Both the position numbers and the translations under genes were made by a program. A stretch of DNA of 64,000 bases from Thermoplasmata archaeon (GTDB lineage Archaea > Thermoplasmatota > Thermoplasmata > Lutacidiplasmatales > UBA184), in contig DAHVCH010000011.1 in assembly GCA_027314165.1 (NCBI GenBank), forward strand, positions 1,990 to 65,989, in the 5' to 3' direction. The notes beneath the pieces are model-generated. The model did no database searches. It saw only the letters and a program-made list of their open reading frames with translations, and was not told where the DNA came from. Of the stretch, positions 12,321-64,000 are shown in pieces; within the stretch, counting starts at the first letter, position 1, and each line of letters opens with the position of its first letter.

Positions 12321-13178
12321 ATGGCGACGCTGCGACCGACGCCCCTTCCGCCCCGCGTCGGTGGGGTCCCCACGCTAACGACCGAAGGCCCGTCCGGGCT
12401 CCAGAGGAACCAGGTCCACACCCTGGACTGCCTGGAGGGCATGGCCAGGCTTGCGCCCTCCTCCGTCGACGTGATCGTCACCTCTCCACCCTACAACATC
12501 GGCAAGCCCTACCTCACGTACGACGACTCGCGCCCCAGGGAGGAGTACCTCGACTGGCTCGAGAGGGTGGCCGTCGCGGCGAAGCGGGTGCTCGCCGACG
12601 AAGGGTCGTTCTTCCTCAACCTGGGGGGGAAGCCGTCGGACCAGGGGATCCCCCTCGAGGTGGTGGACCGGTTCCGGAGGCACTTTACGCTCCAGAACAC
12701 CATCGTTTGGGTCAAGTCGGTGGCCGTCCACGACACCCTCGCCGTCGGCCACTACCAGCCGACGAACAGCGCTCGGTACCTGAACGGCTGCCACGAGTTC
12801 ATCTTCCACCTCACGAAGTCCGGGGACGTTTCCCTGGACAAGCTCGCCGTGGGGGTCCCCTACCAGGACAAGAGCAACATCGGACGGTGGGAGGCGGCCA
12901 AGAAGGACCTGAGGGACCGCGGGTCGACCTGGTTCATCCCCTACGACACGATCCAGGAGTCGCGGCCTCACCCCGCGGTCTTTCCCCCGAAGCTGCCGGA
13001 GATGTGCGTGCGCCTGCACGGGGTCCGCCCGAACATGCTGGTGCTGGACCCGTTCATGGGAACGGGCTCGACCGCGCTCGCCTGCCATCGCCTGGGCGTG
13101 GACTACCTGGGCTTCGAAGTGGACCCGAAGTACGTCGAGATCGCCCGGGAGAACCTCTCCCAGCTCACCCCCCGATAA
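12321..13178 (+). CDS. Beta-class DNA methyltransferase (motif IV SPPY, so N4-cytosine or N6-adenine), apparently orphan
   Basis: …VDVIVTSPPYNIGKPY…GSFFLNLG…HPAVFPPKLPEMCVRL…VLDPFMGTGSTALACHRLGVDYLGFEVDPKYVEIA. Motif IV comes before motif I, which defines the beta permutation. I prefer ATG 12321; the upstream part of ORF 12159.. looks non-coding. Confidence 0.85.
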   Translation: MATLRPTPLPPRVGGVPTLTTEGPSGLQRNQVHTLDCLEGMARLAPSSVDVIVTSPPYNIGKPYLTYDDSRPREEYLDWLERVAVAAKRVLADEGSFFLNLGGKPSDQGIPLEVVDRFRRHFTLQNTIVWVKSVAVHDTLAVGHYQPTNSARYLNGCHEFIFHLTKSGDVSLDKLAVGVPYQDKSNIGRWEAAKKDLRDRGSTWFIPYDTIQESRPHPAVFPPKLPEMCVRLHGVRPNMLVLDPFMGTGSTALACHRLGVDYLGFEVDPKYVEIARENLSQLTPR

Positions 13179-13899
13179 GGGAGCCCCCTTCGAGGGAGGG
13201 GCCCCGGCCGCCCCTGGGCGCGTGACCCGGCTCCCCCTGCGCGGGCACCCACGGGGCGGGGAGCGCGGAGCTCGCGCCCCAATGCTCCGCGAGCCGGGCC
13301 TCGATCCGGACCAGCATGACCGAGAGGCTGCCCTTGTCCACGCCGAGGTCGTGGGCGAGCTGGGTCAGCGAGATGCGACGGGGGAACGCGTAGTAGCCGC
13401 GTTGGACCGCGCGCCCGAAGACCTCGGCCTGGCGCGGGGTGAACTGGGACCCGGTGGGGTAGGCCCGTGAGGTCAGCACGGCCAGCACCCGGCTGCCCGG
13501 GAGGCGAGCCTCGAGCAAGGCGAGCGACCGGCGGGAGATGCGCTGGAGGCCGAGCACCTCCCAGTAGGCGCGACCGTCCCGCAGCGCGAACGGGTACCGA
13601 GGGACCATTCCGGTCTCCTCGAGAAGAGGCACCAGGACGAGGTGCCGGTACTCGACGCGAAGGAGCGCCCCGGACCGGCCCGCCTCCATGAGGCGCACCT
13701 CCTGGACGCTCGGGTCGTGCTGGAGGAAGGTGCGGAGCTCCTCGTTGGGCACGCCCTGCCCGGCGATGTGCGCGATGGAGCGGCCGGACCGCAGGCCCTG
13801 GAGGGCCATCACCCAGAACGTGGTGTCGGGGAAGCGCCGGCTCATCCGGGAGAGCCAGTAGTCGGCCGTAAGCTGGAGCTCGATGCGAACGATCGGCAT
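13165..13899 (-). CDS. HTH_10 (bacterioopsin-activator/Bat-type) DNA-binding regulator
   Basis: C-terminal …FTPRQAEVFGRAVQRGYYAFPRRISLTQLAHDLGVDKGSLSVMLVRIEARL is the HTH_10 signature. The start lies 8 nt after the ClC gene stop, so the two are likely co-transcribed. Confidence 0.8.
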   Translation of the reverse strand: MPIVRIELQLTADYWLSRMSRRFPDTTFWVMALQGLRSGRSIAHIAGQGVPNEELRTFLQHDPSVQEVRLMEAGRSGALLRVEYRHLVLVPLLEETGMVPRYPFALRDGRAYWEVLGLQRISRRSLALLEARLPGSRVLAVLTSRAYPTGSQFTPRQAEVFGRAVQRGYYAFPRRISLTQLAHDLGVDKGSLSVMLVRIEARLAEHWGASSALPAPWVPAQGEPGHAPRGGRGPSLEGGSLIGG

Positions 13900-13907
13900 C
13901 CGAAGAG

Positions 13908-15866: not shown

Positions 15867-16361
15867 CTACGCCCCGGCCGGGTCACGCCTCGCTTCCGGC
15901 AATCGCCCGACGCGGGTGCCCGGGACGCCCCGCTCGTCGAACGGGGGCGGCGGGAGATGGTCCCGCGACGCAGACCGCAAACCGCGTAACGACCCGCTCC
16001 CGTACGGGACCGGCCCAGGGCCCCAGGCTTCAAGCGACCGCCATCCAACATGTTGGACCTTATGCCTTTGCTTCCACCCGGCTCCGGTCGTCGATGTTGT
16101 CCGCGGAAGGGAACCGGCCCGTTCCCTCCGCGCCTCTGACGCGCCCACGGCAGGTCGACCGCCCCTCCGGGGCCCGGTGTCGACGCGGCGTGCGGGGAGG
16201 CTCAGATCTCCACGGCCGACGGAGAGGACCACGCGCCCCCCACCGGAGCCCAGCGGCCCCAAGCCGGACCTCACGTCACGAGAGAGCCACCCGCGAGATG
16301 GGTCGCATCGATCGACCGCGCTCGTCCCGCCCTCGACCGACCGCAGGGGAATGACCCGAGG

Positions 16362-17174
16362 ATGACGAACCGGATGCGGTCGCCGAAGGCCCGGGACCAC
16401 GCCCACGACCAGCTCACCGCCATCACCTTCGACCTGTGGGGAACGCTGCTCCACCTCTCCCCTCGCAACGCCGCCCGGTACGAGGAGGAACGGGAGAGGA
16501 TCTGGCTCGACTCGGCGAGGGCCTGGCCGCGCGTCGAGGGCGCGGAGCCCGTGAAGGGTTCGGAGAAGGAGGCGCGGGCCCAGGTCGTCCAGGAGACCCG
16601 GAAGGAGGCCACGCTCGGCCGCACGAGGTCCGTGGAGGCCCAGGGTCACCGGTTGGCCGAGCTCCTGGGACGGGAGTACCACCCGGGCTGCGTCTCGCGA
16701 CAGCTGGACCCGCTGGTCCGACGCCTGCCGGTGCGCATCGAGCCCGCGGACCGAAGGACCCTCGCGGAGCTGGAGCGGTCCGGCCTTCGCCTGGGGGTGG
16801 TCTCGAACCTCCTCTTCGAGCCGGCCGAGAGCGTCCGTGCCCTTCTCGCCGAGCATCACCTCCTGCGCTTCTTCCATCACGTCTCGTTGAGCGAGGAGCT
16901 TCCCTGGTGCAAGCCCTCGCCCCGGATCTTCCAGGACTGCCTGGAGGAGCTCGGGGTCCCGGCGTGCCATGCCGCGCACGTGGGAGACTCGGAAGAGGAC
17001 GTGACGGGAGCCACGCGTGAAGGGTACGGAGCGGTCGGGTTCATCGGATCGACACGCCGCACGGTCCCCCGCACCGGGAGCGCCTCCGCCTCCCCCTCTC
17101 GCCGGGGCGCGCGCCCCCGCTGCGTCCACCTGGGCAGCGTGAGCGAACTGACCCGGAAGCTTCTCAAGGTGTAG
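16362..17174 (+). CDS. HAD-superfamily hydrolase
   Basis: Motif I ITFDLWGTLL, motif II VVSN, motif III KPSPRIF, motif IV HVGDSEEDV. Confidence 0.75.
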   Translation: MTNRMRSPKARDHAHDQLTAITFDLWGTLLHLSPRNAARYEEERERIWLDSARAWPRVEGAEPVKGSEKEARAQVVQETRKEATLGRTRSVEAQGHRLAELLGREYHPGCVSRQLDPLVRRLPVRIEPADRRTLAELERSGLRLGVVSNLLFEPAESVRALLAEHHLLRFFHHVSLSEELPWCKPSPRIFQDCLEELGVPACHAAHVGDSEEDVTGATREGYGAVGFIGSTRRTVPRTGSASASPSRRGARPRCVHLGSVSELTRKLLKV

Positions 17175-52354: not shown

Positions 52355-54262
52355 ATGGTCGACCTTTTCCAGTTGCTCTACGACACCACCGCGATCGTCG
52401 CGTACCTGGTGCTGCCCGTCGCGATCTTCGCCGCGCTGTTCCTCCTGGCCTGGGAGCGCGGGCTCGAGGGCGACCTTGTCGGGTTCGGCAAGCGGACCTT
52501 CCTCTTGCTGCTCGTGGGCGGGGTGATCGGCTACGTCGCGAACCTGCCGTTCTTCACGTGGAACGGCTCCGTCCTGATGGTGAACGTGGGGGGTGCGCTC
52601 CTCCCCGTCGCGGTCTCCCTGGTCGTGCTGGACCAGAGGATCCTCCCGGGGCGAACGCGCGAGCTCGCCCTCTTCCTCGGGCTGCTCGCCCTCGCCGTCG
52701 GCGCGACGCTCGTCGCGCTGGTCGAGCTCCCGACACGGCTCGGGCTCGTGGGCTTCCTGGCCTGCTTCGCCCTCTCGGGCGCCCTGCTCGTCGCCCTCCG
52801 ACGGAGGGCCGTTCCCGCCCCCCGGCTGGGCTCGACGGTGGACGCGGTCGCCCCCTTCGTCCTCATCGCGCTCGGGATCTGGGGGACCTACCTGACCACG
52901 ACGGTGGTCCCCGCGGTCGGGATCGTCTCCACGTTCCCGGACTACCTGGTGGCCCCTCTGCTCATCGCCCTCGCCGCGGTGGGGCTCCGCTGGCCACGCC
53001 GCGACGCCCCTGCCCTCGCCTTCGCGGCCTCCACCCTCGGCGTCCTCATCGGCGCCGACATCCTCCACCAGCCGCAGCTCTTCCAGGCGCCCGCCTTCCT
53101 GGGCTCGATCGGGGGCGCCGGGCCGCTCGACCTGGTCTTCCTCTCCGGCCCGTTCGCCTTGGGCGTTGCGCTCGTCGTGGATGTCCTCCTCCGGCGGGCC
53201 ACGGGCCCCTCCCCCCTTGGCGCGGAGAAGGCTCCCTCCGCGCGCCCGTTCGGGCCCGTGCGCGGCTCGGAAGCCCGCTTCTACGAGGGGCTCCACGCCT
53301 ACTCGGAGGGGCGCTACGCCGAGGTGGCTCCCGCCGTGGTCCGGACGCTCGACCGCGACCTGGCCGAGACGCGCCGCGCCCTGGGGCTCCCTGAAGCACC
53401 GGCGGCGGCGGGTCTGGAGCCGCTCCCCGTCCACCCGTTCCTGTCCGCCGACCTGGCGAACCTTCGCCAGGTCGCCCAGGAGCCCCCGGGAACCGCGGTG
53501 CGCGAGGACGCCCGACGGGCGCTGGTGACGGGCTTCCTGGTGCAGCGGGGCTTCCTGGGCCTGCTGGGACGGCGCCTGGCGTTGGTGGGCGACCGTGTGA
53601 AGGCCTTCCTGGTCGACCTGCTCGTGGCGTTCCTACCGTCCATCCCCGCCCTCTACCTCCTCCTGAGGTTGCTGCACCTGGACGTCAACTCCGTCACGGA
53701 CTCCCCGTACACCTCGATCGGCTACCTGGCCGCGATCAGCTGGATCGGCGCCTGGCCGTTCCTGATCTACGCCATCCTTGAGTGGAGGTACGGCGTGACC
53801 CCGGGGAAGCGCCTCCTGGACCTGGTCGTCGTGGGCCCGGACGGGGGCCATCCCTCGATGCTCTCCGCGCTCGCGAGGAACGTCCCGAAGCTCCTCCCCC
53901 TGGCCGCCCTGTCCCTGACGCTGGGGATCGGTCTGCCCTTCGCCTTCCAGACCGCTCCGATCTCGGTGGGGGCGAGCGTCGCGCTCGTCATCATCGGGGC
54001 GGGAGTGTTCATCAGCGGGCTCATCGGCCTGGTCAGCGTGTGGGCGATGCGCGTCAGTCCCCGCCGTCAGAGGGTGGGCGACGTGCTCGGCGCGTCCATG
54101 GTCTGGACGCGGAAGCCCCCGCACGTGCCGGGGATCCTCATGGCGGCGGGGAGCCCGACGGTGTCCCCGCCGGCGGCGCCGTGGGCGCCGCGGGAGGCGC
54201 CTGCGGCCGCTCCGAGCCCGTTGGGGGGGCCGATGGGCCCGCCGCCCCTCCAGCCCTGGTGA
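52355..54262 (+). CDS. Polytopic membrane protein: DUF1614-like N-terminal region + C-terminal RDD-family domain
   Basis: 635 aa. The N-terminal multi-TM region contains …NVGGALLPVAVSL… and …GVLIGADIL…GSIGGAGPLDLVFL…. The C-terminal region …WRYGVTPGKRLLDLVVVGPDGGHPSMLSALARN… is RDD-like. The P/A-rich tail overlaps the Alba 3' end. Confidence 0.55.
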   Translation: MVDLFQLLYDTTAIVAYLVLPVAIFAALFLLAWERGLEGDLVGFGKRTFLLLLVGGVIGYVANLPFFTWNGSVLMVNVGGALLPVAVSLVVLDQRILPGRTRELALFLGLLALAVGATLVALVELPTRLGLVGFLACFALSGALLVALRRRAVPAPRLGSTVDAVAPFVLIALGIWGTYLTTTVVPAVGIVSTFPDYLVAPLLIALAAVGLRWPRRDAPALAFAASTLGVLIGADILHQPQLFQAPAFLGSIGGAGPLDLVFLSGPFALGVALVVDVLLRRATGPSPLGAEKAPSARPFGPVRGSEARFYEGLHAYSEGRYAEVAPAVVRTLDRDLAETRRALGLPEAPAAAGLEPLPVHPFLSADLANLRQVAQEPPGTAVREDARRALVTGFLVQRGFLGLLGRRLALVGDRVKAFLVDLLVAFLPSIPALYLLLRLLHLDVNSVTDSPYTSIGYLAAISWIGAWPFLIYAILEWRYGVTPGKRLLDLVVVGPDGGHPSMLSALARNVPKLLPLAALSLTLGIGLPFAFQTAPISVGASVALVIIGAGVFISGLIGLVSVWAMRVSPRRQRVGDVLGASMVWTRKPPHVPGILMAAGSPTVSPPAAPWAPREAPAAAPSPLGGPMGPPPLQPW

Positions 54263-54539
54263 GAACGATCTCGATCGAGGAGACGTTCGCGTCCTTCCCG
54301 TCGCGGTTGGTGAGCCGCTCGGTCCCGATCCGAACGTTCACCACGTGGACCGCCCCCTCGGTGAGCTTGTGCCGGCGGACCACCTCGGCCACGTCGACCG
54401 CGCGGGAGATCGCTTTCCCCCTCGCCTTGACCTTCACTTCGGGCGCTCCGCTCAGGAGCTGTCCCACCACCTCGAACACGTAGGTCATGGTCGGCTTGTC
54501 GCCGACGAAGACGACCGGATCGGTCCGGACGTGGTGCAT
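54138..54539 (-). CDS. albA: Alba DNA/RNA-binding protein (canonical core; the frame remains open upstream, see findings)
   Basis: MHHVRTDPVVFVGDKPTMTYVFEVVGQLLSGAPEVKVKARGKAISRAVDVAEVVRRHKL…VNVRIGTERL…VSSIEIVL is the Alba fold sequence, followed by a P/A-rich C-terminal tail. Confidence 0.8.
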   Translation of the reverse strand: MHHVRTDPVVFVGDKPTMTYVFEVVGQLLSGAPEVKVKARGKAISRAVDVAEVVRRHKLTEGAVHVVNVRIGTERLTNRDGKDANVSSIEIVLTRAGGAAGPSAPPTGSERPQAPPAAPTAPPAGTPSGSPPP

Positions 54540-54590
54540 GGGAGGGCGGGGAGGCCGCCCCTGCCACTGACCGCGGGGCCTTCCGCCGTC

Positions 54591-54674
54591 GCCGCCACCA
54601 CCTCCGCCGCCTCCTCCACCGCCGCCTCCGCCGCCTCCGCCGCCACCTCCGCCGCCTCCTCCACCGCCGCCACC
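54591..54674 (-). repeat. Imperfect trinucleotide (GGN)28 tract, in frame with and 51 nt upstream of the Alba ATG
   Basis: The plus strand reads (GCC/ACC/TCC)n. On the minus strand this gives 28 consecutive Gly codons with mixed third positions, flanked by RRRDRRH and DGGRPRGQWQGRPPRPP. Confidence 0.9.
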
Positions 54675-54953
54675 ATGGCGGCGATCACGTCGGCGGCCCG
54701 GCCCTCGTTCTCCCTGGTCCGGAGGCCGTTCCGAAGAGGGCGGGGGGGTCGCGGGAGGGGTCGCCGGAGCCTCGCTGGGAGGGGGAGAAGAGGCCGCGGA
54801 GCTGGACGGCGGGTTTCCCTCGGCCACGGGGGCGGGGGAGGAGGGGCCCTCCAAAAGGCCTTTCCTCCCGCGAGGGGCCCCGCGGCTCCGCGGGTCCGTC
54901 CGAAAGAGCTTAAGCGGGTGGGCGTTCGGAACGCGGGAAGGGAGAAGAGAAGC

Positions 54954-55038
54954 GCAGGGGTGGCCCAGCTTGGTCAAAGGCGCTAGGTTGAGGTCCTAGT
55001 CTCGTAGGAGTTCGAGAGTTCAAATCTCTCCCCCTGCA
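54954..55038 (+). tRNA. tRNA-Leu (anticodon GAG), class II with long variable arm
   Basis: GCAGGGG-TG-GCCCAGCTTGGTCAAAGGCG-CTAGG-TTGAGGT-CCTAG-TCTCGTAGGAGTTC-GAGAG-TTCAAAT-CTCTC-CCCCTGC-A. Confidence 0.9.
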
Positions 55039-55106: not shown

Positions 55107-55883
55107 CTACCGGTCGGGCAGCTTCTGCTCGACCAGCTTCTTCTCGATGATCGCGAGCCCTTCGGACAGGCTGGAGATCGCCATGCCGAGCTGCTGGGCG
55201 AGCGTGGTCAGGGTGATCCTCCGGGGCACCTCGAAGTACCCGGCGGCGATCGCCCGTCGCAGGACCTCCTGCTGACGCGGGGTCAGCAGCTCTTCGCCCC
55301 TGGCCATGTCGTGGCGCACGGATTCGATGGTCATGCCGGGGGCGATCGTCCGAAGCTCCTCCAGGAGGCGGCGGACCTTCGGCTCCGGACCCACCACGAC
55401 CCACGTCGCCGTCCCGGATTCGATGACGAAGGGGAACCGACGCATCAGCTGGAGCCTCTGGAAGAGGGAGATGAAGGAGGAAGTACGGTGCGACACGCGC
55501 AGCTCGGTGACGGGGGCGGGGGCCCCGAGCTGCTCGACGCGGTTCACCCCGGGAAGCCCTCCGATCTCCTCCGCCCAGGGTCCGGCCTCGGCCGCCCTCA
55601 CCCGGACCTCGGTCAGGGTCCTTCCGCCACCCAGATCGAGGCGGTTCAGGACCTCGACGACCACCTCTGGGCGGGCCGAGCTGAACCGCTGGACCCAGCT
55701 CCCTTCCGGAAGCGGCACCCGCAGCCGGCAGGCGAGCAGAGGCTGGACCGCTGCTTCGACCGGTTTCTCCGGCGCGGGCCTGGGACCGCGGGAGCGAGGG
55801 GGGGCCTCACGCGCCGACCGACGACCTCCGGCGACCCTCTTCGGGCGTGGGGCACGAGGCTTGGGCCGGGAGGTGGAGGGCAC
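55107..55883 (-). CDS. HTH_10 (Bat-type) DNA-binding regulator, paralog of 13165-13899
   Basis: C-terminal …LTPRQQEVLRRAIAAGYFEVPRRITLTTLAQQLGMAISSLSEGLAIIEKKL. GTG start at 55883. The basic P/R-rich N-terminus makes the exact start uncertain. Confidence 0.75.
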   Translation of the reverse strand: MPSTSRPKPRAPRPKRVAGGRRSAREAPPRSRGPRPAPEKPVEAAVQPLLACRLRVPLPEGSWVQRFSSARPEVVVEVLNRLDLGGGRTLTEVRVRAAEAGPWAEEIGGLPGVNRVEQLGAPAPVTELRVSHRTSSFISLFQRLQLMRRFPFVIESGTATWVVVGPEPKVRRLLEELRTIAPGMTIESVRHDMARGEELLTPRQQEVLRRAIAAGYFEVPRRITLTTLAQQLGMAISSLSEGLAIIEKKLVEQKLPDR

Positions 55884-56016
55884 AAGGTACGCAACGTTCT
55901 TCGGGATTAAGTCCGCGCTGGCCGGCTCGGGGGGGAACGCCGAACGCTCTAGGTGGCCGGTCTAACGGAGCCGGGGGACTCCCCACCCCAGGAGACCCCG
56001 TACGGGGAACCTGACC

Positions 56017-56913
56017 ATGATCGCTATCGAGGCGTCGGACCCACTGGAAGAACTTCAACGCGAGAACGAGGTGACCGAGCGCCTGCTCGAGCGGCTGCTC
56101 GAGGAGGCCCAGTCGCTCAGGGCGGGCAGACCGGTGCCGCCGGGGGAGATCTCGGCCGGGCTCCGGCTCCTGGAGCAGTACCTGCGGGTCCACGTCGCGC
56201 GCCTGGACCGGGGGCTCCTGCCCGAGGCCCGCGAGGCGGCGATGCCGACCTGTTCCGCCCATCTCGACAAGATGGACGAGTACCACTTGGAGGAAGGCCG
56301 CCTCCTGACCGAGGCCAAGGCCGTCCTCCTCGACCACGAGAAGGGACGGGGCGAGCCATCGAGACGTCTCGCCGAGGCCCTGGAGCGGCTCACGCAACGG
56401 GACCACGAGGTGGGCACCTACGAGGGCGACTACCCGCTCTCCTGCCTGCGGACCGCGCTCCCCGAGGACGCCTCGAAGCGTGTCGCGGAGCGATTCGCGC
56501 CCACCCGCCGAGAGCTCTCCGACCTCGACGCCCACGTCCAGAGGCATCTCGCCTCCGCGGATCGGAAGGAGGGCTCGCCCTTGGCCGTGCACTGCGCTCA
56601 CGAGGGGTGCGAGGCCAAGGGTAGGGCCCAGGTGGTCCCGGGGCCCGGAGGGCGTCTCGAGCTCGTCGCTCCGAAGGACGGCTGGGCCGTGGCTTCCCAG
56701 ATGGTGGCGCCCCACGGGTCCTGGGTCGTCCGAATTCAGGTCCACTTCCAATGCCCTCGCCACGCGTCCGGCGCCCCTGGGGCCGAGCTTGCCGCCACGG
56801 CGATGGCCTTGTGGGCTGACGACGGAGGACACGCGGGGCCGAGCTCGATCGGAGGAGGTCGGGGCCCTTCGGGGATGCCGCGCCCGCCCGCTCCGGTCCC
56901 GGGGACCGCGTGA
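56017..56913 (+). CDS. Helical hemerythrin-like (HHE-type) domain protein with C-terminal Cys/His cluster
   Basis: The N-terminal ~165 aa are helical with H/E-rich motifs (…YLRVHVARLD…, …HLDKMDEYHLEEGRLL…, …RDHEVGTYEGDYPL…). The C-terminus has …LAVHCAHEGCEAKG…VHFQCPRHAS (C-x-H-x2-C … C-x2-H). The family call is tentative. Confidence 0.45.
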   Translation: MIAIEASDPLEELQRENEVTERLLERLLEEAQSLRAGRPVPPGEISAGLRLLEQYLRVHVARLDRGLLPEAREAAMPTCSAHLDKMDEYHLEEGRLLTEAKAVLLDHEKGRGEPSRRLAEALERLTQRDHEVGTYEGDYPLSCLRTALPEDASKRVAERFAPTRRELSDLDAHVQRHLASADRKEGSPLAVHCAHEGCEAKGRAQVVPGPGGRLELVAPKDGWAVASQMVAPHGSWVVRIQVHFQCPRHASGAPGAELAATAMALWADDGGHAGPSSIGGGRGPSGMPRPPAPVPGTA

Positions 56914-57443
56914 ACGCGCCTCAGGTCGCATCCGGGCCCCGGATGCTCCCGTCGCTCCCGATGGCCGGCCGGAAGGCGCCCTCGAGGGAGGCGCTTTGGA
57001 TGCTGCTGAACGGCTCCGGCTACCTTCTCCTGCTCTGCGCCTCGATGGTCGTCGCGGTCCTGCTTCAACTCGTGTGGGGCCGCTCCCTCCCCGACAGTTT
57101 CGTGGACGACCGTGACCTGGTCGCGCTCTTCGGATGGGTGGGGCTGACGATCAGCGGGGTCAGCACCATCGTCGTGCCGAACCACGTAGGTGTCGGCCTC
57201 TGGCCGCGCTCCGTCCCTCGCCTGCACCTGGTGATGACCAACCTTGGGATCCTGGGGTTCTTCGGGACCTCGCTCCTCATTCCCGGGTCGAACCTTGCCC
57301 TGGTCTTCCTACTGCTGGCGCTCCTCTCCTTCCTTATCTTCGGAACGCTCGTGGTCCGGACGGTCCTGCCCTTCGCCCTGGGCCGCAGCCCGAGGACCGC
57401 GGAGCCCGCGGTCGCGCCCGGCCGCGCCGGCGCATCGAAGTGA
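56910..57443 (+). CDS. 4-TM membrane protein, translationally coupled (GTGA) to the preceding gene
   Basis: 177 aa with hydrophobic segments: …YLLLLCASMVVAVLLQLVW…, …LFGWVGLTISGVSTIVVPNHVG…, …LVMTNLGILGFFGTSLL…, …LVFLLLALLSFLIFGTLVV…. Confidence 0.5.
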   Translation: MNAPQVASGPRMLPSLPMAGRKAPSREALWMLLNGSGYLLLLCASMVVAVLLQLVWGRSLPDSFVDDRDLVALFGWVGLTISGVSTIVVPNHVGVGLWPRSVPRLHLVMTNLGILGFFGTSLLIPGSNLALVFLLLALLSFLIFGTLVVRTVLPFALGRSPRTAEPAVAPGRAGASK

Positions 57444-57567
57444 CTGCGGAAGGTCGGAGAGCGCCTTCGCGGGGGAAGCGAGGGCGGAACCTGGCGGAAC
57501 AGGGCCGAAGCGCTTCGGGAGAATGTAGAGGAGCCTGGGCGTCCTCGACGGCAGGAGGAGCGGGTCG

Positions 57568-58290
57568 ATGTCGGAAGGGGGCGGCGGGTTCCAGATCTCC
57601 ATCACGCCTCGGGCGGCCAAGGCGTTCCAGGAGGTCCTGGCCCACCAGCCGCCGGGCTCCGCCGTCCGGGTCTTCGCCCTCCCCGGACCCCACCCGCGCC
57701 CGAACATGTTCATCGAGAAGCCCCGGCCCCACGAGCAGGTGCTCCAGGTGGAAGGGGTCCCTCTCCTCGTGGATGAGGTGAGCGAGAAGTTCCTCGCGGA
57801 GGCCGTGATCGACCACCTGGACGCCTCCGGAAGCTCCGGTTTTCACATCGAGGGACCCAACGTGCCGACGACCGGCGCGGGGGAGGGGGAGGCGACCGGA
57901 GCGGACCCCTCCGGACCCGCTCCCCCCTCGGCGGGACCGCCGACCGCTCCGGCTTCGCCTTCGGCCGCGAACCCTCCCCGAGGACCTGCCGAGAGGGATG
58001 CGATGCTCCGCCAGGCCCTCCGCAAGATCTACGACCCGGAGATCCCCATGAACATCCTGGACCTGGGGCTCATCTACGGGATCGACTGGCCCGCCGAGGA
58101 CACGCTCCACGTTCGGATGACGATGACCAGCCCCGGCTGCCCCGTCGCGGGTCTGCTCCACGACCAGGTCGAGGAAGCGGCGCGCGCAATCCCGGGGGTC
58201 CGGGAAGCGGATGTCGAGATCGTGTGGGAACCCGCCTGGGGCCCGGAGAAGATGAGCGCGTTCGCGCGGCGCCAGTTCGGCTACGATTGA
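57568..58290 (+). CDS. Fusion protein: Cys-less HesB/IscA-like domain + Pro/Ala linker + DUF59 (SufT/MIP18-type Fe-S assembly) domain
   Basis: N-terminal …FQISITPRAAKAFQEVL…VRVFALPGP…VEGVPLLVDEVSEKFLAEAVIDHLD…GFHIEGPN has the HesB topology but lacks the three conserved Cys. C-terminal …LRKIYDPEIPMNILDLGLIYGI…VRMTMTSPGCPVAG…VEIVWEPAWGPEKMS is the DUF59 signature. Confidence 0.75.
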   Translation: MSEGGGGFQISITPRAAKAFQEVLAHQPPGSAVRVFALPGPHPRPNMFIEKPRPHEQVLQVEGVPLLVDEVSEKFLAEAVIDHLDASGSSGFHIEGPNVPTTGAGEGEATGADPSGPAPPSAGPPTAPASPSAANPPRGPAERDAMLRQALRKIYDPEIPMNILDLGLIYGIDWPAEDTLHVRMTMTSPGCPVAGLLHDQVEEAARAIPGVREADVEIVWEPAWGPEKMSAFARRQFGYD

Positions 58291-58332
58291 CCGGCCGTCG
58301 TCCGTTCGGCTTGGCTCCGGCGGACGGCCGCC

Positions 58333-59451
58333 TCAGGGATAGAAGACCGAGGAGTCCACGCCGAAGGCCCGCCCCACGACCGAGCGCTCGAGGGCCACGG
58401 CGAGGAGGAGCGCGATCCCGAAGCCGACGATCGCGGCGACGTTGAGGAGGGAGGCCCAGGAGCGCACCGCCTGCAGTCCCAGGAGGTCGGCGCCCACCCG
58501 CGCCCCCACGGAGAGGTCGAGGACGACGAGCGGCGCGTAGAAGAACCGGTGGAACGGCACGGGCCGTCCCAGCACCGCAGGCACGATGATGGTCGCATGG
58601 GCGAAGACCATCGATAGGACAAAGCCCAGGAAGACCGCGTGGAGCTGGGCATCGTACACCAGCGTGTCGGGAAGGATCCCGCCGTAGGCGAGGACGAGGA
58701 GACCCCCCGCCAGCAGCCAAAGGTGGCCGGAAAGGAGGCTCACGGCCGTGAACCGGGGAACCCCGGGCCGGGAGAGGTTCCTCCGGGCCACGTCATGGAC
58801 GAGCAGCCACACCGCCATCCCCGCCCAGGACATCGCGAGGAGTTCTGTCCCGAGCGCGAACGACCGGAGGGCGACGACGCACGCGATCACGTCGAGAGCG
58901 ACCATCGCGACGAGGGCGAGCCGGCGCGTCCGGGAGATGGGCAGGACCCGGGTGAGTTCGAGGCGCTCCGCGACGATCACCAGGACGAGGAAGGACCCCC
59001 ACCAGGGGATCACGTAGGGCACGTCCAGGCCGGACCACCAGAGCAGGTTCCCGACGAGGAGCGAGACCGCGCCGAGGAGCTGGGCCATCGTGTGGACCGC
59101 GGGTTGCCGTGAGAGGATGATCAGGAACATCCCCACGATCACCGCGCTCCCGGCGGTCAGCAGCAGCCCCCCGGGATCCCACGGGAGACCGATGGCGAAG
59201 AGGACCGAGCCCGCCCCCGTCAGGAGCGGCCCGGCGAAGAGCCCCCGGCGCTCGAGCGCGACCGCGCGCTCCAGCCCGATGAGCGTCGCCAGCACCCCGT
59301 TCACCATGAGCGCCCCATGGGCGTCCAGGAACCCGGAGGACGGGACCGGCAGGGCCCAGCCCACCCGGTCGAGCCCCGTCCACACCCCCAGCGCGAGCGC
59401 CAGGATCCCGACGGCCATCGCCGGGTAGCGGAGCGAGGAGCGTTCGACCAT
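58333..59451 (-). CDS. Polytopic (~10-12 TM) membrane protein of unknown function, downstream of DUF2249
   Basis: 372 aa with conserved-looking …FLDAHGALMVNGVLATLIGLERAVALE… and …VLVIVAERLELTRVLP… plus …HAVFLGFVLSMVFAHATIIVP…. It may be an NnrS-like/heme-copper-type protein, but I cannot assign a family. Confidence 0.6.
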   Translation of the reverse strand: MVERSSLRYPAMAVGILALALGVWTGLDRVGWALPVPSSGFLDAHGALMVNGVLATLIGLERAVALERRGLFAGPLLTGAGSVLFAIGLPWDPGGLLLTAGSAVIVGMFLIILSRQPAVHTMAQLLGAVSLLVGNLLWWSGLDVPYVIPWWGSFLVLVIVAERLELTRVLPISRTRRLALVAMVALDVIACVVALRSFALGTELLAMSWAGMAVWLLVHDVARRNLSRPGVPRFTAVSLLSGHLWLLAGGLLVLAYGGILPDTLVYDAQLHAVFLGFVLSMVFAHATIIVPAVLGRPVPFHRFFYAPLVVLDLSVGARVGADLLGLQAVRSWASLLNVAAIVGFGIALLLAVALERSVVGRAFGVDSSVFYP

Positions 59452-59526
59452 CGTCGGACCGGTGGAGAGGAGAGCCGAGCGTCGACCGTGTGTACGGCGG
59501 GACCGGGCTGAGAGGACCGCCCCGAC

Positions 59527-59847
59527 CTATTGGACGGTCGGGATCGGGCTGCGGTCGGAGGCTACCGAGAGCTTGCGGATGCGGACGCGCCAGTTCTCGG
59601 GGCCCCTCTCCAGGTAGTCCCACGTGAACCGGCCGGTGTGCTCGGCCTGGAACTGGTAGTAGAGCGGCTTCGGGTCGTGGTCGTTCAGCAGGACGAAGGA
59701 TTCTCCGGGCGAGAGCGCCTCGAACGTCCCGAAGATCCTCGGGTGTCTCTGGGCGGGCGGGGTGCTCCTCACATCGACGACCGTCTCGTTCGGCAGCACC
59801 TGCGTCAGCGGCCCAGCGTTCTGGTGGTCCACGGGAGGCTTCTCCAT
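59527..59847 (-). CDS. DUF2249-domain protein
   Basis: …VVDVRSTPPAQRHPRIFGTFEALSPGESFVLLNDHDPKPLYYQFQAEHTGRFTWDYLERGPENWRVRIRK matches the DUF2249 pattern (RHP.IF…L.PG…L.NDHDP.PL…W.YLE.GP..W). ATG at 59847. Confidence 0.75.
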   Translation of the reverse strand: MEKPPVDHQNAGPLTQVLPNETVVDVRSTPPAQRHPRIFGTFEALSPGESFVLLNDHDPKPLYYQFQAEHTGRFTWDYLERGPENWRVRIRKLSVASDRSPIPTVQ

Positions 59848-59980
59848 CGGTATCTCCGTCCGGCCCTTCGGGCCTTGACCTGGGCAGAAGAGGGGCTGCG
59901 AAGAGGAGAGGACCGAAACCTTTCGGAACGAGGCCGAGGAGCACGGGCGACATACCCCACCGTCGGGAGGAGCGAACCTG

Positions 59981-61417
59981 GTGATCGGAGCAGGACCGCG
60001 CCGCTTCCTCGCCACCGCGGTGCTCCACCTCGCGGCGCTGGGGGCCCTCATGGCCAGCGGCGTCGTGGGCCTCGACGCGCTCCTCTGGCTCTTCCTGGTG
60101 GGGTTCCTCGGGCACACGCTCGTGGGCTTCGCCTGGCACCTTGCCCCCTCCATCTCTCGACGGAGGCTCGTGGGTGTCCCCTCGGGGCCCGCGTACTGGG
60201 TCGCGGCCGAGCTCTCGGTGCTCGGGGGTACGGTCGGCCTCTCGGGGGAGCTGCCCCCAGCCTTCGGTCGAGGGGTCTGGTTCGCCGCCGCCGTGCTCTG
60301 GCTCGTCGTGAGCGCGGTGTTCATGGCGGCGCTCTTGCGGTCGTCCCGAGGCCCGGCGCTCGGAGCCCCGCCCGCCCCCAGACCCGCGGACGCGTTCGCG
60401 GCCACGCTCTTCCTCCTCTCCTGGCCCTTCGGGACGGCCGCCGCCGCGCTGTGGGTCCTGAGCGCCGTTCAGGACGGGCCGGGGCTCGGCTACTGGCTCG
60501 CGGGCGTCCACGCGTTCGTCCTGGGACAGGTCGCCCTCCTCATCTTCGGCGTCAGCCTCCGCCTGCTCCCCCGATTCGTAGGCGCGGACGGGCCGAGATG
60601 GCTTGCCGGGGCACTCGTCGTCTCCGCCGTCGTGGGGGCCCTGGGGATCCCCGCGACGATGCTCCTCGTCCCGGTCGGGGAGATCTGGGTCGTCGGGGTC
60701 CCCGGGCTCTTCGAGGGCATGGCGGCCCTCCTGTTCCTGGTCCAGCTCCTCTGGACCGGGGCCCGTGCGACGACGCCCCGTCGCGCCCATGCCATCTACC
60801 TCGCGGGAGCGGTGTTGCTCTGCGCCGGCGGCTCGCTGGGGCTTCGGATGGTTACGACCTCGGACCTCGCGATCGTCGGCATCCACGCCTGGACCACCCT
60901 CCTCGGGTTCACAGGGCTCATGGTGCTGGGGATGTGGTTCAGCATGATCGCCCCCTTTCAGTTCCTCTCCCACCGGTGGACGCTCCGGGCGCTCGCGGTC
61001 GGAGCCATCCTGCAGATCTCCGCCGTGCTCCTCGTGTGGTCGGAGCTCGCAATCCCCCGATCGGCCGTCGCCCTTGCCACCGCGCTCGCGGGCGGTCTCG
61101 AAGCGGTGTCGGGGGTCCTCTGGGCCCTCGGAACCCTTCCGGTCCTCTTCCCGAGCCTTCTCCCGGAGGAGGCGCGCTGGAGGGAACGCGGCGTAGTGGG
61201 CCGGCTGCGGTTCCCCTCGATCAACCCGGGCCGTCGGAGGAGCTCAGCATCGTGGAGATGGTACGGTGGAGCTCGGCCGCCTCCCCCTCCGAGACCTCCG
61301 GGCCGAACCAAGGATAGAGCTGGCCTTCCTCTCGGGTGTTATGGGCCCACAGGACGTTGCGAAGGACCGTGGAGGGCTCCTCCAGCCCCTTGTCCCCGGC
61401 CTCGACATGGCCCATGA
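59981..61417 (+). CDS. Polytopic (~12 TM) His-containing membrane protein of unknown function
   Basis: …FLVGFLGHTLVGFAWHLAPSI…, …WLAGVHAFVLGQVALLIFGVSLRLLPRF…, …IVGIHAWTTLLGFTGLMVLGMWFSMIAP…. GTG start preceded by GGGAGG. The last ~65 codons are R/P-rich and overlap the convergent hemerythrin gene, so the true C-terminus is uncertain. Confidence 0.55.
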   Translation: MIGAGPRRFLATAVLHLAALGALMASGVVGLDALLWLFLVGFLGHTLVGFAWHLAPSISRRRLVGVPSGPAYWVAAELSVLGGTVGLSGELPPAFGRGVWFAAAVLWLVVSAVFMAALLRSSRGPALGAPPAPRPADAFAATLFLLSWPFGTAAAALWVLSAVQDGPGLGYWLAGVHAFVLGQVALLIFGVSLRLLPRFVGADGPRWLAGALVVSAVVGALGIPATMLLVPVGEIWVVGVPGLFEGMAALLFLVQLLWTGARATTPRRAHAIYLAGAVLLCAGGSLGLRMVTTSDLAIVGIHAWTTLLGFTGLMVLGMWFSMIAPFQFLSHRWTLRALAVGAILQISAVLLVWSELAIPRSAVALATALAGGLEAVSGVLWALGTLPVLFPSLLPEEARWRERGVVGRLRFPSINPGRRRSSASWRWYGGARPPPPPRPPGRTKDRAGLPLGCYGPTGRCEGPWRAPPAPCPRPRHGP

Positions 61418-61712
61418 ACCGCTCCAGCGCGTCCCGGATCTGGACGTGCTCCTCTCGAAGGAGCTCGAGGAGGTGGTGCTCCCGACCGTCAGTGTGCTCC
61501 TCGTAGAACGGGAAGACCATCCCCTCCTCCACCTGGATGTGGCGTAGCAGGCCGCTCGTAAACTCCCGGAAGAGGGCGGTCGCCCGAGCCGGGTCGGTCC
61601 CCCATAGCCGCATCCCCTGGTCCCAGATCTCGTCCAGCCGAGCATGGTCCGCTTCCAGCGCTTGCCCAAGGGCGAGGGAAGGGCCCTCCGGGCCGGGGGG
61701 GTCGGCAGGCAT
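61221..61712 (-). CDS. Hemerythrin HHE cation-binding domain protein
   Basis: …LEADHARLDEIW…, …LLRHIQVEEGMVFPFYEEH…, …LREEHVQIRDAL…, …LWAHNTREEGQLYPWF… are the four-helix H/E ligand motifs. Confidence 0.8.
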   Translation of the reverse strand: MPADPPGPEGPSLALGQALEADHARLDEIWDQGMRLWGTDPARATALFREFTSGLLRHIQVEEGMVFPFYEEHTDGREHHLLELLREEHVQIRDALERFMGHVEAGDKGLEEPSTVLRNVLWAHNTREEGQLYPWFGPEVSEGEAAELHRTISTMLSSSDGPG

Positions 61713-61931
61713 GGCCGGTCCAGGCCCTCCATCCCCCTGAAGCGAGCACCTAGAGGGCTCGGTTCACGACACGGGCCAGGTCCCACACGGGGGGGGGACG
61801 GGGAGAAGCGCCTCGGCGTGCCCGACCCGTGGTACAGGATAGCAAGACCCCCCACGGGATCGGGGTCCAGTGGAGCCGGCTCCACCTAACGCATAAAGAG
61901 GCCGTCACCGTCGGAGGGCGCAGTGAGAAAC

Positions 61932-62138
61932 ATGGCGGGTTTCAACTTCGCCTGCAAGGACGTCGGAATGAAATGCGACTTCGAGATACGCGGTGCGTCG
62001 ACGAAGGACGAGGCCATGCAAGAGGCCGCGGCCCACGCCAAGCACGCGCACCAGTTGGAGACCATCTCCCCCGAGCTTGGGGCGAAGGTCTCCGCGGCGA
62101 TCCGGCAGGGTGGGGGACTCCTCCCGCACCACCTCTGA
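61932..62138 (+). CDS. DUF1059-family small protein
   Basis: MAGFNFACKDVGMKCDFEIRGASTKDEAMQEAAAHAKHAHQ… matches the DUF1059 pattern (F.C.D.G..C.F…H…H). A CATAAAGA box lies about 35 nt upstream. Confidence 0.7.
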   Translation: MAGFNFACKDVGMKCDFEIRGASTKDEAMQEAAAHAKHAHQLETISPELGAKVSAAIRQGGGLLPHHL

Positions 62139-62213
62139 TCGGCCAACCTTTCGCCTCGGACGCCCTGGCCTGATGGCCGGGGCGCCCTCCCGCGAACCCC
62201 CTGGCGCGGGGGC

Positions 62214-62981
62214 TCAGCACTCCGAGCCTGGGGGCTCTTCCTTCCGGCGCAGCAGCTGCACGTAGTGGTGGGGACCGCCCTTCCACGCCCGAACCACCTT
62301 GAGGCCCGCCTGGGCGAGCCTTTCGGCCGCTTCCTCCGGAGTGTGCCGGATCTCGAGGGGGGGCCCTCCGGGGGTCTCCCGCTTCTCCCAATCCAGGTTC
62401 ACGAAGCATCCACCGGGCCGAAGCAACCGTACCGCCTCCGCCACGGTCTCCTTCGGCACGTCGTGGAGGACCGTCGCCATCAGGACCATGTCCGCGACCC
62501 CCGTGGGGAGAGGGATCCGTTCCGGCGTGCTCGCCACCACCTCCACCTGAGGGAGGTGCTCCTTCGTGCGCCGCTCTTCGAGCAGCCCGACGAGGTCCTT
62601 GGAGACGTCGACGGCGTAGACCTTCCCTGCAGGTCCCACACGCCGTGCGGCGGGGAAGGCGAAGAACCCGGTCCCGGCGCCCACGTCGACCACCACGCTC
62701 CCCGGGAGCAGCTCGACCTCCTTCCAGAGGGCGTCCGGGTCCAGCATGCTCCTGCGCTCGGGCGACTCCAGGACCGCGACCGCCTGCTCCCGGGACCATC
62801 CCGGGTGACCGCCCGGACCGTGCCCGTGCCCGTGGCCATGGCCGTGGCCATGCGCTCCGACGTGCCCCTGCCCTCGTTCATGTCCGTGGCCGTCCCCTTG
62901 TCCGTGGCTCTGCGCGTGCCCGTGACCTTCGGAGGCCGTGGCGGGGCGGGCGCTCGAGGACGTACGGTCCTCTCGGCTCAC
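62214..62981 (-). CDS. Class I SAM-dependent methyltransferase with His/Gly-rich N-terminal tract
   Basis: The GTG at 62981 overlaps the DUF302 stop (GTGA). N-terminus …SEGHGHAQSHGQGDGHGHERGQGHVGAHGHGHGHGHGHGPGGH…. Then VVDVGAGTGFFAFPAARRVG…VYAVDVS… (motif I/II) and …LRPGGCFVNLDW…. Confidence 0.75.
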   Translation of the reverse strand: MSREDRTSSSARPATASEGHGHAQSHGQGDGHGHERGQGHVGAHGHGHGHGHGHGPGGHPGWSREQAVAVLESPERRSMLDPDALWKEVELLPGSVVVDVGAGTGFFAFPAARRVGPAGKVYAVDVSKDLVGLLEERRTKEHLPQVEVVASTPERIPLPTGVADMVLMATVLHDVPKETVAEAVRLLRPGGCFVNLDWEKRETPGGPPLEIRHTPEEAAERLAQAGLKVVRAWKGGPHHYVQLLRRKEEPPGSEC

Positions 62982-63397
62982 GCGTGGCTCCCGGCGCCGT
63001 GGGGGGTGGCCGTGGCGTCGACCGCCTGGATGAGCTGCGTCTCGACCTCTTCCGCGAGCGCGCGGAGCGCGGGAGGCGGCGACATCAGCCCCATCGCGCT
63101 CGTGGGCCGAAGGAGCGCGACGCGGGTGTGTCCCTCCTCGCGCGAGACCACGATCTTGCACGGCAGGAGGAGCGCCACGTCCCTGGAGGCCTTGAGCGCC
63201 TTGTCGGCCAGGCGAGGGGAGCAGACGTCCAGGAGGACGACCGGTTCGATGTCCGCCCCGATCTTCTCCTTCAGGAGGTCGTGCACCCGGAGGTTGGCCA
63301 GGATGCCGAAGCCCCTGGACTTGAGCTCCTGCTCCAGGCGGGCGACGGCCTCGTCGACCGTCCCGCCGGGCTGGACCGCGTAGGAGATGCCGGTCAT
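62978..63397 (-). CDS. DUF302-domain protein
   Basis: MTGISYAVQPGGTVDEAVARLEQELKSRGFGILANLRVHDLLKEKIGADIEPVVLLDVCSPRLADKAL…LPCKIVV… is the DUF302 signature. ATGA overlap with the thioredoxin stop. Confidence 0.8.
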   Translation of the reverse strand: MTGISYAVQPGGTVDEAVARLEQELKSRGFGILANLRVHDLLKEKIGADIEPVVLLDVCSPRLADKALKASRDVALLLPCKIVVSREEGHTRVALLRPTSAMGLMSPPPALRALAEEVETQLIQAVDATATPHGAGSHA

Positions 63398-63849
63398 GCG
63401 TACCCCGAGGGAGGGGCGCCCGCCGCGGGAAGGTGGAACGCGCGAAGGACCCGCTGCAGGAGCATCTCCTTCGCCATGACGCCCATCGTGCGGTCGACCA
63501 GGCGTCCGTGGTCGAAGTAGAGGAGGGTGGGGATCGCCTCGACCCCGAACTGGCCCGCGATCGCGGGCTCCTCGTCGGCGTTCAGCTTCGCGAACCGTAC
63601 CTGCCCGGCGAGGTCCTTCGCGAGCGCATCGACCGTCGGGGAGAGGTAGCGGCAGGGGCCGCACCAGGGGGCCCAGACGTCCACCACCAGGCGGGGGTTC
63701 TCGGAGAGGACCCGCGAGAAGGTCGAGGTCGTCGCCTGCACGGGCTCGATCCCGGCCGTCGCGGGCGGCGCTTGCTCTTTCGGCCTGGTCATCAGTTGCG
63801 CTAGCCGCCTCTGGCGAAGCTCCTGAAGCTCCGCGTCCTCCTCGTTCAT
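63394..63849 (-). CDS. trx: Thioredoxin
   Basis: …VVDVWAPWCGPCRYLSPTVDALA…FAKLNADEEPAIAGQFGVEAIPTLLYF… with the WCGPC active site. ATG 63849 is preceded by GGAGG. Confidence 0.9.
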   Translation of the reverse strand: MNEEDAELQELRQRRLAQLMTRPKEQAPPATAGIEPVQATTSTFSRVLSENPRLVVDVWAPWCGPCRYLSPTVDALAKDLAGQVRFAKLNADEEPAIAGQFGVEAIPTLLYFDHGRLVDRTMGVMAKEMLLQRVLRAFHLPAAGAPPSGYA

Positions 63850-63850
63850 C

Positions 63851-64000
63851 TCAAGCCTCCACCGGTGTCCCGTGGTCCGCAGGGGCACGTGTCCCCGCCC
63901 CGCTCACGTCCGCCGCAGGAGAGGCAGGGCTCGAAGGACAATAGGCCTTCGCAAGGTAGGTCGAGACGTCGGTGATCTTCACGTCCTCCGGGGCGACACG
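63851..64000 (-). CDS. 3' end of an unidentified upstream gene (partial, enters from the right edge)
   Basis: My own translation of the minus strand from base 64000 gives RVAPEDVKITDVSTYLAKAYCPSSPASPAADVSGAGTRAPADHGTPVEA-stop (TGA 63853-63851). The stop sits 1 nt before the trx ATG. No family assignable from 49 residues. Confidence 0.3.
   Translation of the reverse strand, partial: RVAPEDVKITDVSTYLAKAYCPSSPASPAADVSGAGTRAPADHGTPVEA

Follow-up and report, generated by a model that had tools for sequence, protein, structure and literature searches.

A candidate nitric oxide- or low-oxygen-responsive archaeal regulon with three predicted haem-copper-oxidase homologues

Do the twelve genes that lie side by side between positions 55107 and 63849 of the window (the whole 64,000-nucleotide (nt) stretch analysed here, from contig DAHVCH010000011.1 of a Thermoplasmata archaeon) form one functional system, and what would such a system do? 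The initial annotation, read from the letters, had proposed a single module with a dedicated regulator, linked to nitric oxide (NO), O2 or metal stress and to Fe-S repair, whose membrane proteins could not be named. All twelve open reading frames (ORFs) of the island are present in this archaeal contig of about 70% GC, at the coordinates given below for each, and Pfam reproduces every domain call. The module of twelve stood in part: the left eight genes (55107-61712) belong together by regulator, synteny and operator, and the genes for DUF1059, thioredoxin (Trx), DUF302 and a methyltransferase drop out. The regulator gene is indeed linked to the core in relatives, and a palindrome is shared by promoters of the island. 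The membrane proteins can be given a name after all, by Foldseek and hhalign, as distant homologues of the haem-copper oxidases (HCOs). Judged from sequence, structure models and analogy, it is reasonably probable that 55107-61712 is an archaeal eight-gene regulon, responsive to NO and/or low O2, that protects or restores iron centres.

The extent of the unit follows from a comparison of loci carrying a homologue of M1, a protein of twelve transmembrane (TM) helices encoded at 58333..59451 on the minus strand. One relative that is 94% identical (L001) has all twelve genes. Relatives whose M1 proteins are 43-61% identical hold the HTH_10, hemerythrin-like, 4-TM, DUF59, DUF2249-M1, M2-like and hemerythrin genes in varied combinations and orders, and no DUF1059, DUF302, Trx or His-rich methyltransferase gene is present in L002-4, L089, L090, L091 or L094; among the loci compared, DUF1059 is seen in L001 only. 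Since the core is conserved and the right-hand genes are absent from distant relatives, we conclude that the module is 55107-61712, a conserved core of eight genes. The neighbourhood conservation that the initial annotation had proposed as a check therefore holds for this core in archaeal relatives and fails for the genes to its right. Among 82 non-redundant M1 loci, 61 have at least one partner gene within 3 kb (DUF59 at 45, DUF2249 at 29, hemerythrin at 21 and a second HCO-homology gene at 16). The clustering of the core recurs in independent genomes and is not due to chance.

M1 belongs to a large unannotated family of more than 1399 homologues, each named one of which is called 'hypothetical', in metagenome-assembled genomes of Thermoplasmata/Euryarchaeota and in many bacterial phyla. 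A scan of a species-representative genome collection confirmed M1 relatives at 597 of 600 candidate stretches. A single Pfam record (PF00498) appears among the 120 M1 homologues listed, in a longer protein of 452 amino acids (aa), and M1, M2 and the 4-TM protein have no Pfam match at E<=10 and no NCBIfam match at E<=1. Neither COX1 (PF00115) nor NnrS (PF05940) is matched by M1 or M2 at the former threshold; the two are not Pfam-level members of either family. The AlphaFold model of M1 (pLDDT 91.6) shows twelve long helices, and its best Foldseek matches are NorB of the cytochrome-dependent NO reductase (cNOR), CcoN of the cbb3 oxidase and COX1, with query-normalised TM-scores of 0.51-0.67; the listed matches other than HCOs mostly score about 0.3 or lower. 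In a 33-member alignment H45, E61-R62, E162-R163, D220, D267, H271, H285, Y305, R318, D322 and R330 are invariant, which makes three invariant His against the six canonical HCO ligands. That six-His set (TM2, TM6, two in TM7 and two in TM10) is not conserved in M1 or M2. Genes of the M1 family occur in genomes labelled Nitrospira, Ca. Methylomirabilis, Gallionella, Sulfuricella and Rhodocyclales, all of them nitrogen-cycling lineages.

M2, the second 12-TM protein, is encoded on the plus strand at 59981..61417, with the conserved part reaching to about 61201. Its nine close homologues are confined to a small archaeal clade, and a profile search of 1.8 billion representatives returned 98 relatives, one with a weak COX1 match. 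Distant M2 relatives show weak Pfam matches to COX1 and NnrS; the best related score, that of the M2-like protein of L091 to NnrS, is 11.5 bits (E 0.19), the gathering score being 28. The AlphaFold model has a pLDDT of 96.5, and all of its top 50 Foldseek matches are HCO subunit I, with E-values down to 1.3e-5. In the wider-family alignment H177 is invariant and H302 nearly so, and no other His is invariant. The ORF itself has 478 aa in the window, as against 396-409 aa for all homologues. Compared with the 94%-identical L001 it has a 2-nt deletion directly past the last TM helix (61160-61417); a TAG stop is thereby bypassed, and the frame stays open for about 70 further codons, into the hemerythrin gene that is read from the other strand. 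The deletion and the tail that follows may be genuine or may stem from an error of assembly.

The third membrane protein is a single four-helix unit that corresponds to one third of an HCO-fold protein (56910..57443, plus strand, or from an alternative start at 57000). Among 22 aligned members of its family, R68, D69, W76, P90, H92, H106 and N111 are invariant. Its gene is paired with the hemerythrin-like gene in L001 and L090; ORF-level profile matches show the same pairing in L010. The GTGA overlap that had been proposed between this pair hinges on the choice of start, since the window's own call for the 4-TM protein is 147 aa long and begins 90 nt downstream.

The three membrane proteins are related to one another unit by unit. 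With hhalign, TM9-12 of M1 align on TM1-4 of M2 (probability 94%, E 1e-7), and residues 30-151 of the 4-TM protein align on residues 8-121 of M2, again TM1-4 (probability 92%, E 5e-7); the 4-TM family against M1 gives a weak result (E 0.07), and BLASTP of M1 against M2 gives nothing significant. In almost all loci, a hidden Markov model (HMM) of the M2 family matches the M1 protein one unit at a time. Directly 3' of bacterial M1 genes it also matches 12-TM COX1-like ORFs and tandem ORFs of 140-175 aa. When M2 is compared with an alignment of annotated NnrS proteins, the match is collinear across 283 columns (E 1e-3, probability 21%), and both H271 of M1 and H302 of M2 fall on the histidine of the NnrS 'LHALTVG' motif in TM10. 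Profile searches of the M1 and M2 families against PDB sequences returned no match, and hhalign of both families against E. coli CyoB returned none either; as the CyoB alignment is empty, the histidines cannot be mapped to the canonical ligands by sequence. Even so, the models of M1 and M2 clearly have the HCO fold, and the three proteins are homologous to one another at the level of the four-helix unit. By these models and profiles, M1, M2 and the 4-TM protein are placed as distant HCO homologues of the NnrS-like 'HCO homology' (HCOH) kind. What Pei et al. are said to have called 'HCO homology' in 2014 reportedly covers three-unit 12-TM families including NnrS, as well as single-unit 4-TM families, with few conserved His. 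A link of DUF2249 to the HCO superfamily (Pei, Li, Kinch and Grishin 2014, Protein Sci 23:1220) is cited in PMC11218638.

In six Chloroflexota/Anaerolineae loci (L041, L042, L079, L081, L069 and L024), one or two consecutive single-unit ORFs of 140-175 aa follow M1, at about 11-13 kb in the 21-kb loci. In these genomes the second HCO-like partner appears to be split into separately encoded parts.

By the positive-inside rule and their helix positions, the conserved His H45 (TM2) and H271 (TM10) of M1, and H177 (TM6) and H302 (TM10) of M2, lie near the outer face. M1 and M2 may each bind one b-type haem through these residues. Because the CuB/FeB ligands are lacking in both, they are presumably neither proton-pumping oxidases nor classical NO reductases.

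Apart from the regulator, the remaining products of the core are cytoplasmic proteins with links to iron. The hemerythrin-like four-helix protein (298 aa; 56017..56913, plus strand) scores 24.0 bits with Pfam Hemerythrin, slightly below the gathering threshold (GA) of 25.3, and ends in a Cys/His domain (C-x4-C ... C-P-x-H); H59, C79, H90, H130/E131, C143, H173, C193, C198, C246 and H249 are invariant in three orthologues. The 163-aa hemerythrin, an HHE di-iron four-helix bundle encoded convergently with M2 (61221..61712, minus strand), reaches 52.6 bits with PF01814, above the same GA of 25.3, and a hemerythrin adjoins the module in L002, L089, L091 and L094. It is not recognised as RIC/YtfE: with TIGR03652 it reaches 25.7 bits where 204.7 is the cut-off, and an ScdA_N domain is missing. 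Next to the 4-TM gene, a fusion protein (57568..58290, plus strand) combines a Cys-less IscA-like domain with a SufT-like DUF59 domain. The latter (FeS_assembly_P, PF01883) is present at 68.4 bits; the SUF-associated equivalog TIGR02945 gives 111.8 where 143.4 is required. The former does not qualify as an IscA/HesB A-type carrier, with 21.5 bits for Fe-S_biosyn, below the GA of 26.3, and zero Cys in residues 1-107, where three are expected. Finally, DUF2249 (112.4 bits with Pfam; 59527..59847, minus strand) is encoded upstream of M1 in the same operon, and immediately 5' of M1 in every archaeal locus examined in detail. In Thermus, the DUF2249 protein DrpA together with DrpB affects the expression and activity of nitrate reductase (PMC6282519). 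For DUF2249, the hemerythrin and the hemerythrin-like protein, no relative of solved structure was found by sequence.

A DUF488 gene, which the window lacks, lies beside a hemerythrin or hemerythrin-DUF2249 gene in two archaeal loci (L002, 11737-12087; L091, 4286-4630) and one bacterial locus (L005, 5351-6016).

How might these genes be controlled together? A gene for an HTH_10 regulator of the Bat/NarO type (57.5 bits with Pfam; 55107..55883, minus strand) stands next to DUF2249-M1 in L001, L002, L089, L090, L091 and L094. Its true start is probably internal, as the protein is 222 aa long in L001. Sensory modules of such regulators are PAS/GAF domains in Bat and a Cys cluster in NarO. Here HTH_10 is the sole domain detected, and neither a PAS/GAF module nor a Cys cluster was found N-terminally, the protein having one Cys only; relatives show weak or faint BAT-domain matches.

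Aligning the regions upstream of DUF2249 in six archaeal loci yielded the palindrome CCGAA-N4-TTCGG. The window holds two exact copies in 64 kb against 0.10 expected, a count that none of 100 shuffles reached, and both sit in island promoters: CCGAAGCGCTTCGG at 57505..57518, 50 nt 5' of the IscA-like/DUF59 start, and CCGAAACCTTTCGG at 59913..59926, in the divergent DUF2249/M2 promoter region (no strand is assigned to either). Eight distinct relatives together have 13 exact sites in 134 kb, where 0.43 would be expected; almost all belong to module promoters, upstream of DUF2249-M1, DUF59 and hemerythrin genes. The palindrome recurs 46-66 nt upstream of DUF2249-M1, M2, DUF59 and, in relatives, hemerythrin genes. 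The site upstream of DUF59 is also found in L001 and L090, and with one mismatch in L002; the site upstream of DUF2249 is found in L010, L012, L050, L089, L090 and L094, and with one mismatch in L002 and L091. In L089, L091 and L094 a copy lies at or just 5' of the annotated start of hemerythrin. The initial annotation had suggested a search for a motif common to three intergenic regions. One of these, 59848-59980, does contain the palindrome; 55884-56016 and 61713-61922 do not, allowing up to one mismatch, and the second site lies upstream of DUF59 instead. Scans for sigma-70 promoters and terminators were uninformative, their models not being suited to an archaeon.

The island palindrome has the same half-sites and the same 4-nt spacer length as CGAAYATGTTCG, a Haloferax mediterranei motif found at a distance of 66-79 nt upstream of the genes nirK, nor and nosZ; promoter activity falls when that motif is mutated (PMC10062603). 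It also occurs at the gene for a Bat-like activator and at two DUF2249 genes whose expression rises under denitrification (PMC11218638). By analogy with what has been proposed for the haloarchaeal CGAA-N4-TTCG operator, the adjacent HTH_10 protein is a candidate binder of the island palindrome. The exact Haloferax 12-mer CGAAYATDKTYG was tried and rejected: allowing up to one mismatch, no intergenic region of the island contains it, its sole match in the island lies inside the DUF59 gene, and its overall count is not significant. It was the relaxation of this pattern to its half-sites that revealed CCGAA-N4-TTCGG.

Some other occurrences may be recorded here. A palindrome CGAACATGTTCA at 57701-57712, within the IscA-like/DUF59 coding region, agrees at 11 of 12 positions with the Haloferax nor/nos motif CGAACATGTTCG, which may be chance. 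A one-mismatch copy of the island palindrome at 4160-4173 is probably chance; it lies within a phosphate uptake cluster (3146-10069) of two BPD_transp_1 permeases, PBP_like_2, PhoU and a fusion of a major facilitator superfamily (MFS) transporter with PhoU_div. In L090, an IS605 OrfB/TnpB (Cas12f-like) gene (15042-16304) lies 1 kb from the regulator of the module, and an exact palindrome is found just 3' of the TnpB gene, ahead of an unannotated 147-aa gene.

Clues to function come from annotated bacteria. In RefSeq-annotated plasmids of cultivated bacteria, where the M1 homologue is always a 'hypothetical protein', the same partners recur beside genes of NO metabolism. Plasmid pHG1 of Cupriavidus necator H16 carries norR - ytfE - norB and, further along, nrdD/G - DUF59 - M1 - Rrf2 - DUF2249 - hemerythrin. 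In Paraburkholderia fungorum, Rrf2 - NnrS - hemerythrin - DUF2249 adjoins DUF59 - DUF2249 - M1 - hemerythrin; Variovorax has DUF2249 - DUF59 - M1 - NnrS; and Jiella has NosR, NnrS, DUF2249 - DUF59 - M1, a further NnrS, a truncated haemoglobin and hmpA. The DUF59 neighbour of M1 is annotated as a 'metal-sulfur cluster assembly factor' in four plasmids. A metagenomic bacterium has a hemerythrin fused at its C-terminus to DUF2249, overlapping M1 and downstream of a Crp/Fnr regulator. The core of bacterial NO regulons includes both dnrN/ytfE and nnrS (PMC1274295), and nnrS adds to NO resistance in V. cholerae (PMC3345576). It is because of these annotated neighbours (NnrS, Rrf2, norR-ytfE-norB, hmpA) that we link the island to NO/O2 stress and to Fe-S clusters. 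The link made in the initial annotation is borne out by gene context in bacteria, and the function itself is what we infer from it.

A working model can be put together as follows. NO and/or low O2 would switch the eight-gene regulon on, with the adjacent HTH_10 protein binding CCGAA-N4-TTCGG. In the membrane, M1 and M2 as putative haem proteins might bind the gas or convert it, or else relay electrons; in the cytoplasm, iron or gas would be dealt with by the hemerythrins and DUF2249, and DUF59 would replenish Fe-S clusters. The whole set would then limit damage by NO/O2 to iron centres, much as NnrS and the di-iron protein RIC/YtfE may do in bacterial NO regulons.

Several points weigh against this model. 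Haem ligation by M1 and M2 is read solely from helix position and topology, with no sequence-level match to a solved HCO, and to say that the island works like NnrS is a weak mechanistic statement, NnrS being itself without an established mechanism. As the regulator has a single Cys, sensing through a Cys cluster in the manner of NarO is out of the question. In the window, the palindrome was found neither upstream of hemerythrin nor upstream of the regulator/hemerythrin-like pair, and no nir, nor or nos gene is present among the genes scanned in the 64 kb. Furthermore, 21 of the 82 M1 loci have no partner gene nearby.

Other explanations of the island have been considered. It might mature cofactors or traffic metals for anaerobic respiratory enzymes and have no part in stress defence, in which case Fe-S clusters or iron would be supplied by DUF59, DUF2249 and the IscA-like domain, while haem, iron or copper would be transported by the HCO-like proteins. 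A Thermus mutant without DrpA (DUF2249) and DrpB makes NarG and has about one tenth of the nitrate-reductase activity (PMC6282519), and the nar operon of H. mediterranei has a P-loop Fe-S carrier containing DUF2249. Gene context adds to this: a DUF59-ParA/Mrp fusion, DUF2249 and a multicopper oxidase lie beside M1 in L092, genes for haem biosynthesis and the molybdenum cofactor lie 0-7 kb from the module in L094, and a molybdopterin oxidoreductase and FdhD are nearby in L090. We nevertheless hold this explanation to be rather unlikely; among the window genes scanned there is no respiratory enzyme for such a pathway to serve, the predicted fold is that of a redox enzyme subunit and not of a known transporter, and the genes nearest to the bacterial counterparts serve NO detoxification and regulation, not assembly.

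It appears very unlikely that M1, M2 and the 4-TM protein are the catalytic subunits of a minimal terminal oxidase or NO reductase of a new kind, whether energy-conserving or energy-dissipating, with the hemerythrins as carriers of electrons or of O2/NO. The six canonical His are not conserved in M1 or M2, Pfam COX1 matches neither, and the archaeal island has no subunit II, cytochrome c or cupredoxin partner, even though the best structural matches of M1 are cNOR NorB and cbb3 CcoN, a COX1-like 12-TM protein follows M1 in NC10 and other bacteria, and M1-family genes are found in the nitrogen-cycling genomes named above. As for the view that the twelve genes are small redox genes brought together by chance, it might draw on the loss of synteny of DUF1059 and of Trx-DUF302-methyltransferase beyond the closest relative, on the membership of the latter three in another operon, and on the M1 loci that lack partners. 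It is contradicted already for the core, which is kept in archaeal genomes down to 43% M1 identity, shares a strongly enriched operator palindrome and has counterparts in the DUF59-DUF2249-M1 operons that recur across bacterial phyla, and we regard it as extremely improbable.

The regulon responsive to NO and/or low O2 is therefore the reading that we carry forward. A bolder form of it, decidedly unlikely as matters stand, would make the three HCO-homology proteins an uncharacterised haem machine of the membrane, with the 4-TM protein perhaps forming a trimeric 'split' HCO-like barrel, that turns over NO or carries electrons across the membrane to the cytoplasmic di-iron hemerythrins. This would be a new class of NO/O2-handling enzyme, related to oxidases, NO reductases and NnrS and distinct from them. 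If true, such a machine would shed light on the origin of the 12-helix HCO fold from 4-helix units.

The genes to the right of the core belong elsewhere, and DUF1059, Trx, DUF302 and the methyltransferase are ruled out as members of the module by synteny and operon structure. The DUF1059 gene (65.2 bits with Pfam) lies at 61923..62138 on the plus strand. The genes for Trx (85.1 bits), DUF302 (62.1 bits) and a His-rich class-I S-adenosylmethionine (SAM) methyltransferase (Methyltransf_11, 60.6 bits), at 62214..63849 on the minus strand, form the 3' end of a neighbouring Hdr-like/TusA/DsrE operon. The ATGA overlap of Trx with DUF302 and the GTGA overlap of DUF302 with the methyltransferase, both proposed in the initial annotation, can be read directly in the sequence. 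Directly before Trx, the window's last positions (63851-64000, minus strand) hold the 3' end and the stop codon (63851-63853) of an HdrB-like CCG gene; the boundary at 63849 cuts the operon. In L001 the genes on the same strand before Trx are HdrB-like CCG, ferredoxin, HdrA-like, FlpD, TusA, ArsR and DsrE. The Trx-DUF302-methyltransferase operon, which starts with DsrE/ArsR/TusA/Hdr-like genes in L001, may serve sulfur or metalloid handling. The methyltransferase has an N-terminal extension of about 78 aa with Gly-His repeats (62747-62981, minus strand), in frame in L001 too, and its best NCBIfam matches are arsenite methyltransferases, far below cut-off.

Other neighbours were noted in passing. 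On the left of the island, a (CCG)n-type repeat of about 90 nt (54582-54674) lies just upstream of an Alba domain and encodes poly-Gly in the ORF 54138-54977; a relative's Alba gene call is only 133 aa, as against this long ORF. Near the module of L094 are hemC, hemE, a radical-SAM gene, ferrochelatase and a HemY-like gene (11709-17073), and near that of L090 are FdhD, a molybdopterin oxidoreductase and MobB (1556-7146).

The components of the island belong to a superfamily that is known bioinformatically and uncharacterised experimentally. Within searchable papers, we found no description of the archaeal regulator and operator or of the three-paralogue island, and nothing on 'HCOH' or on NnrS together with DUF2249. 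As far as checked, an archaeal eight-gene regulon with three HCO-homology paralogues is new, as are the pairing of HTH_10 with CCGAA-N4-TTCGG outside haloarchaea and the observation that a widespread DUF59-DUF2249-M1 operon lacks a family model. The M1 family is very large, has no Pfam or NCBIfam model, shares a strikingly well conserved operon with DUF59 and DUF2249 and stands beside NO-defence genes in cultivable denitrifiers. The predicted superfamily placement and the candidate regulator-operator pair lead to hypotheses that can be put to the test for DUF2249, for NnrS-like proteins and for prokaryotic hemerythrins, all of them long without an established mechanism. They would also extend a denitrification operator of haloarchaeal type to an archaeal lineage that is not halophile-like, and the presence of 12-TM proteins and a free 4-TM unit in one island offers a natural system for the evolution of the oxidase fold.

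Among known systems, the HCOH proteins come close in that they comprise 12-TM proteins built from three 4-TM units, free-standing 4-TM units and an association with DUF2249. NnrS, a haem- and copper-containing protein of bacterial NO regulons, likewise has 12 TM helices within the HCO-like superfamily, a TM10 His that aligns with those of M1 and M2, and genes beside bacterial M1 operons; it differs in its conserved residues, for example from the ER motifs of M1. The closest solved structures, NorB of cNOR and of the quinol-dependent enzyme (qNOR) and CcoN of the cbb3 oxidase, share the 12-helix fold (query-normalised TM-scores 0.56-0.68), whereas the island proteins are without sequence similarity to them, without the full ligands of the binuclear centre and without partner subunits. 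RIC/YtfE/DnrN/NorA proteins are, like the window hemerythrins, di-iron four-helix bundles of the hemerythrin type whose genes accompany those of NO-related membrane proteins; the window hemerythrins have no ScdA_N domain and are accompanied by a DUF2249 gene instead. In the DrpA/DrpB pair of Thermus thermophilus, DrpA is a DUF2249 protein translationally coupled to its partner, in a setting of nitrate respiration and Crp-family control, but DrpB is a membrane-associated protein of 273 aa with no predicted TM helix, unlike the 12-TM, HCO-fold M1.

Lastly, the haloarchaeal denitrification regulon (NarO/Bat-like) offers a parallel on the side of control. The island palindrome differs from the haloarchaeal one in its spacer sequence and in an additional conserved flanking C/G, and its host is a Thermoplasmata-related archaeon of 70% GC that is not halophile-like. 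The targets are HCOH, hemerythrin and DUF59 genes instead of nir/nor/nos, and the regulator has one Cys. Nevertheless, the two systems have in common an HTH_10-family regulator, CGAA-N4-TTCG half-sites about 50-80 nt upstream of gene starts, and DUF2249 genes among the targets.

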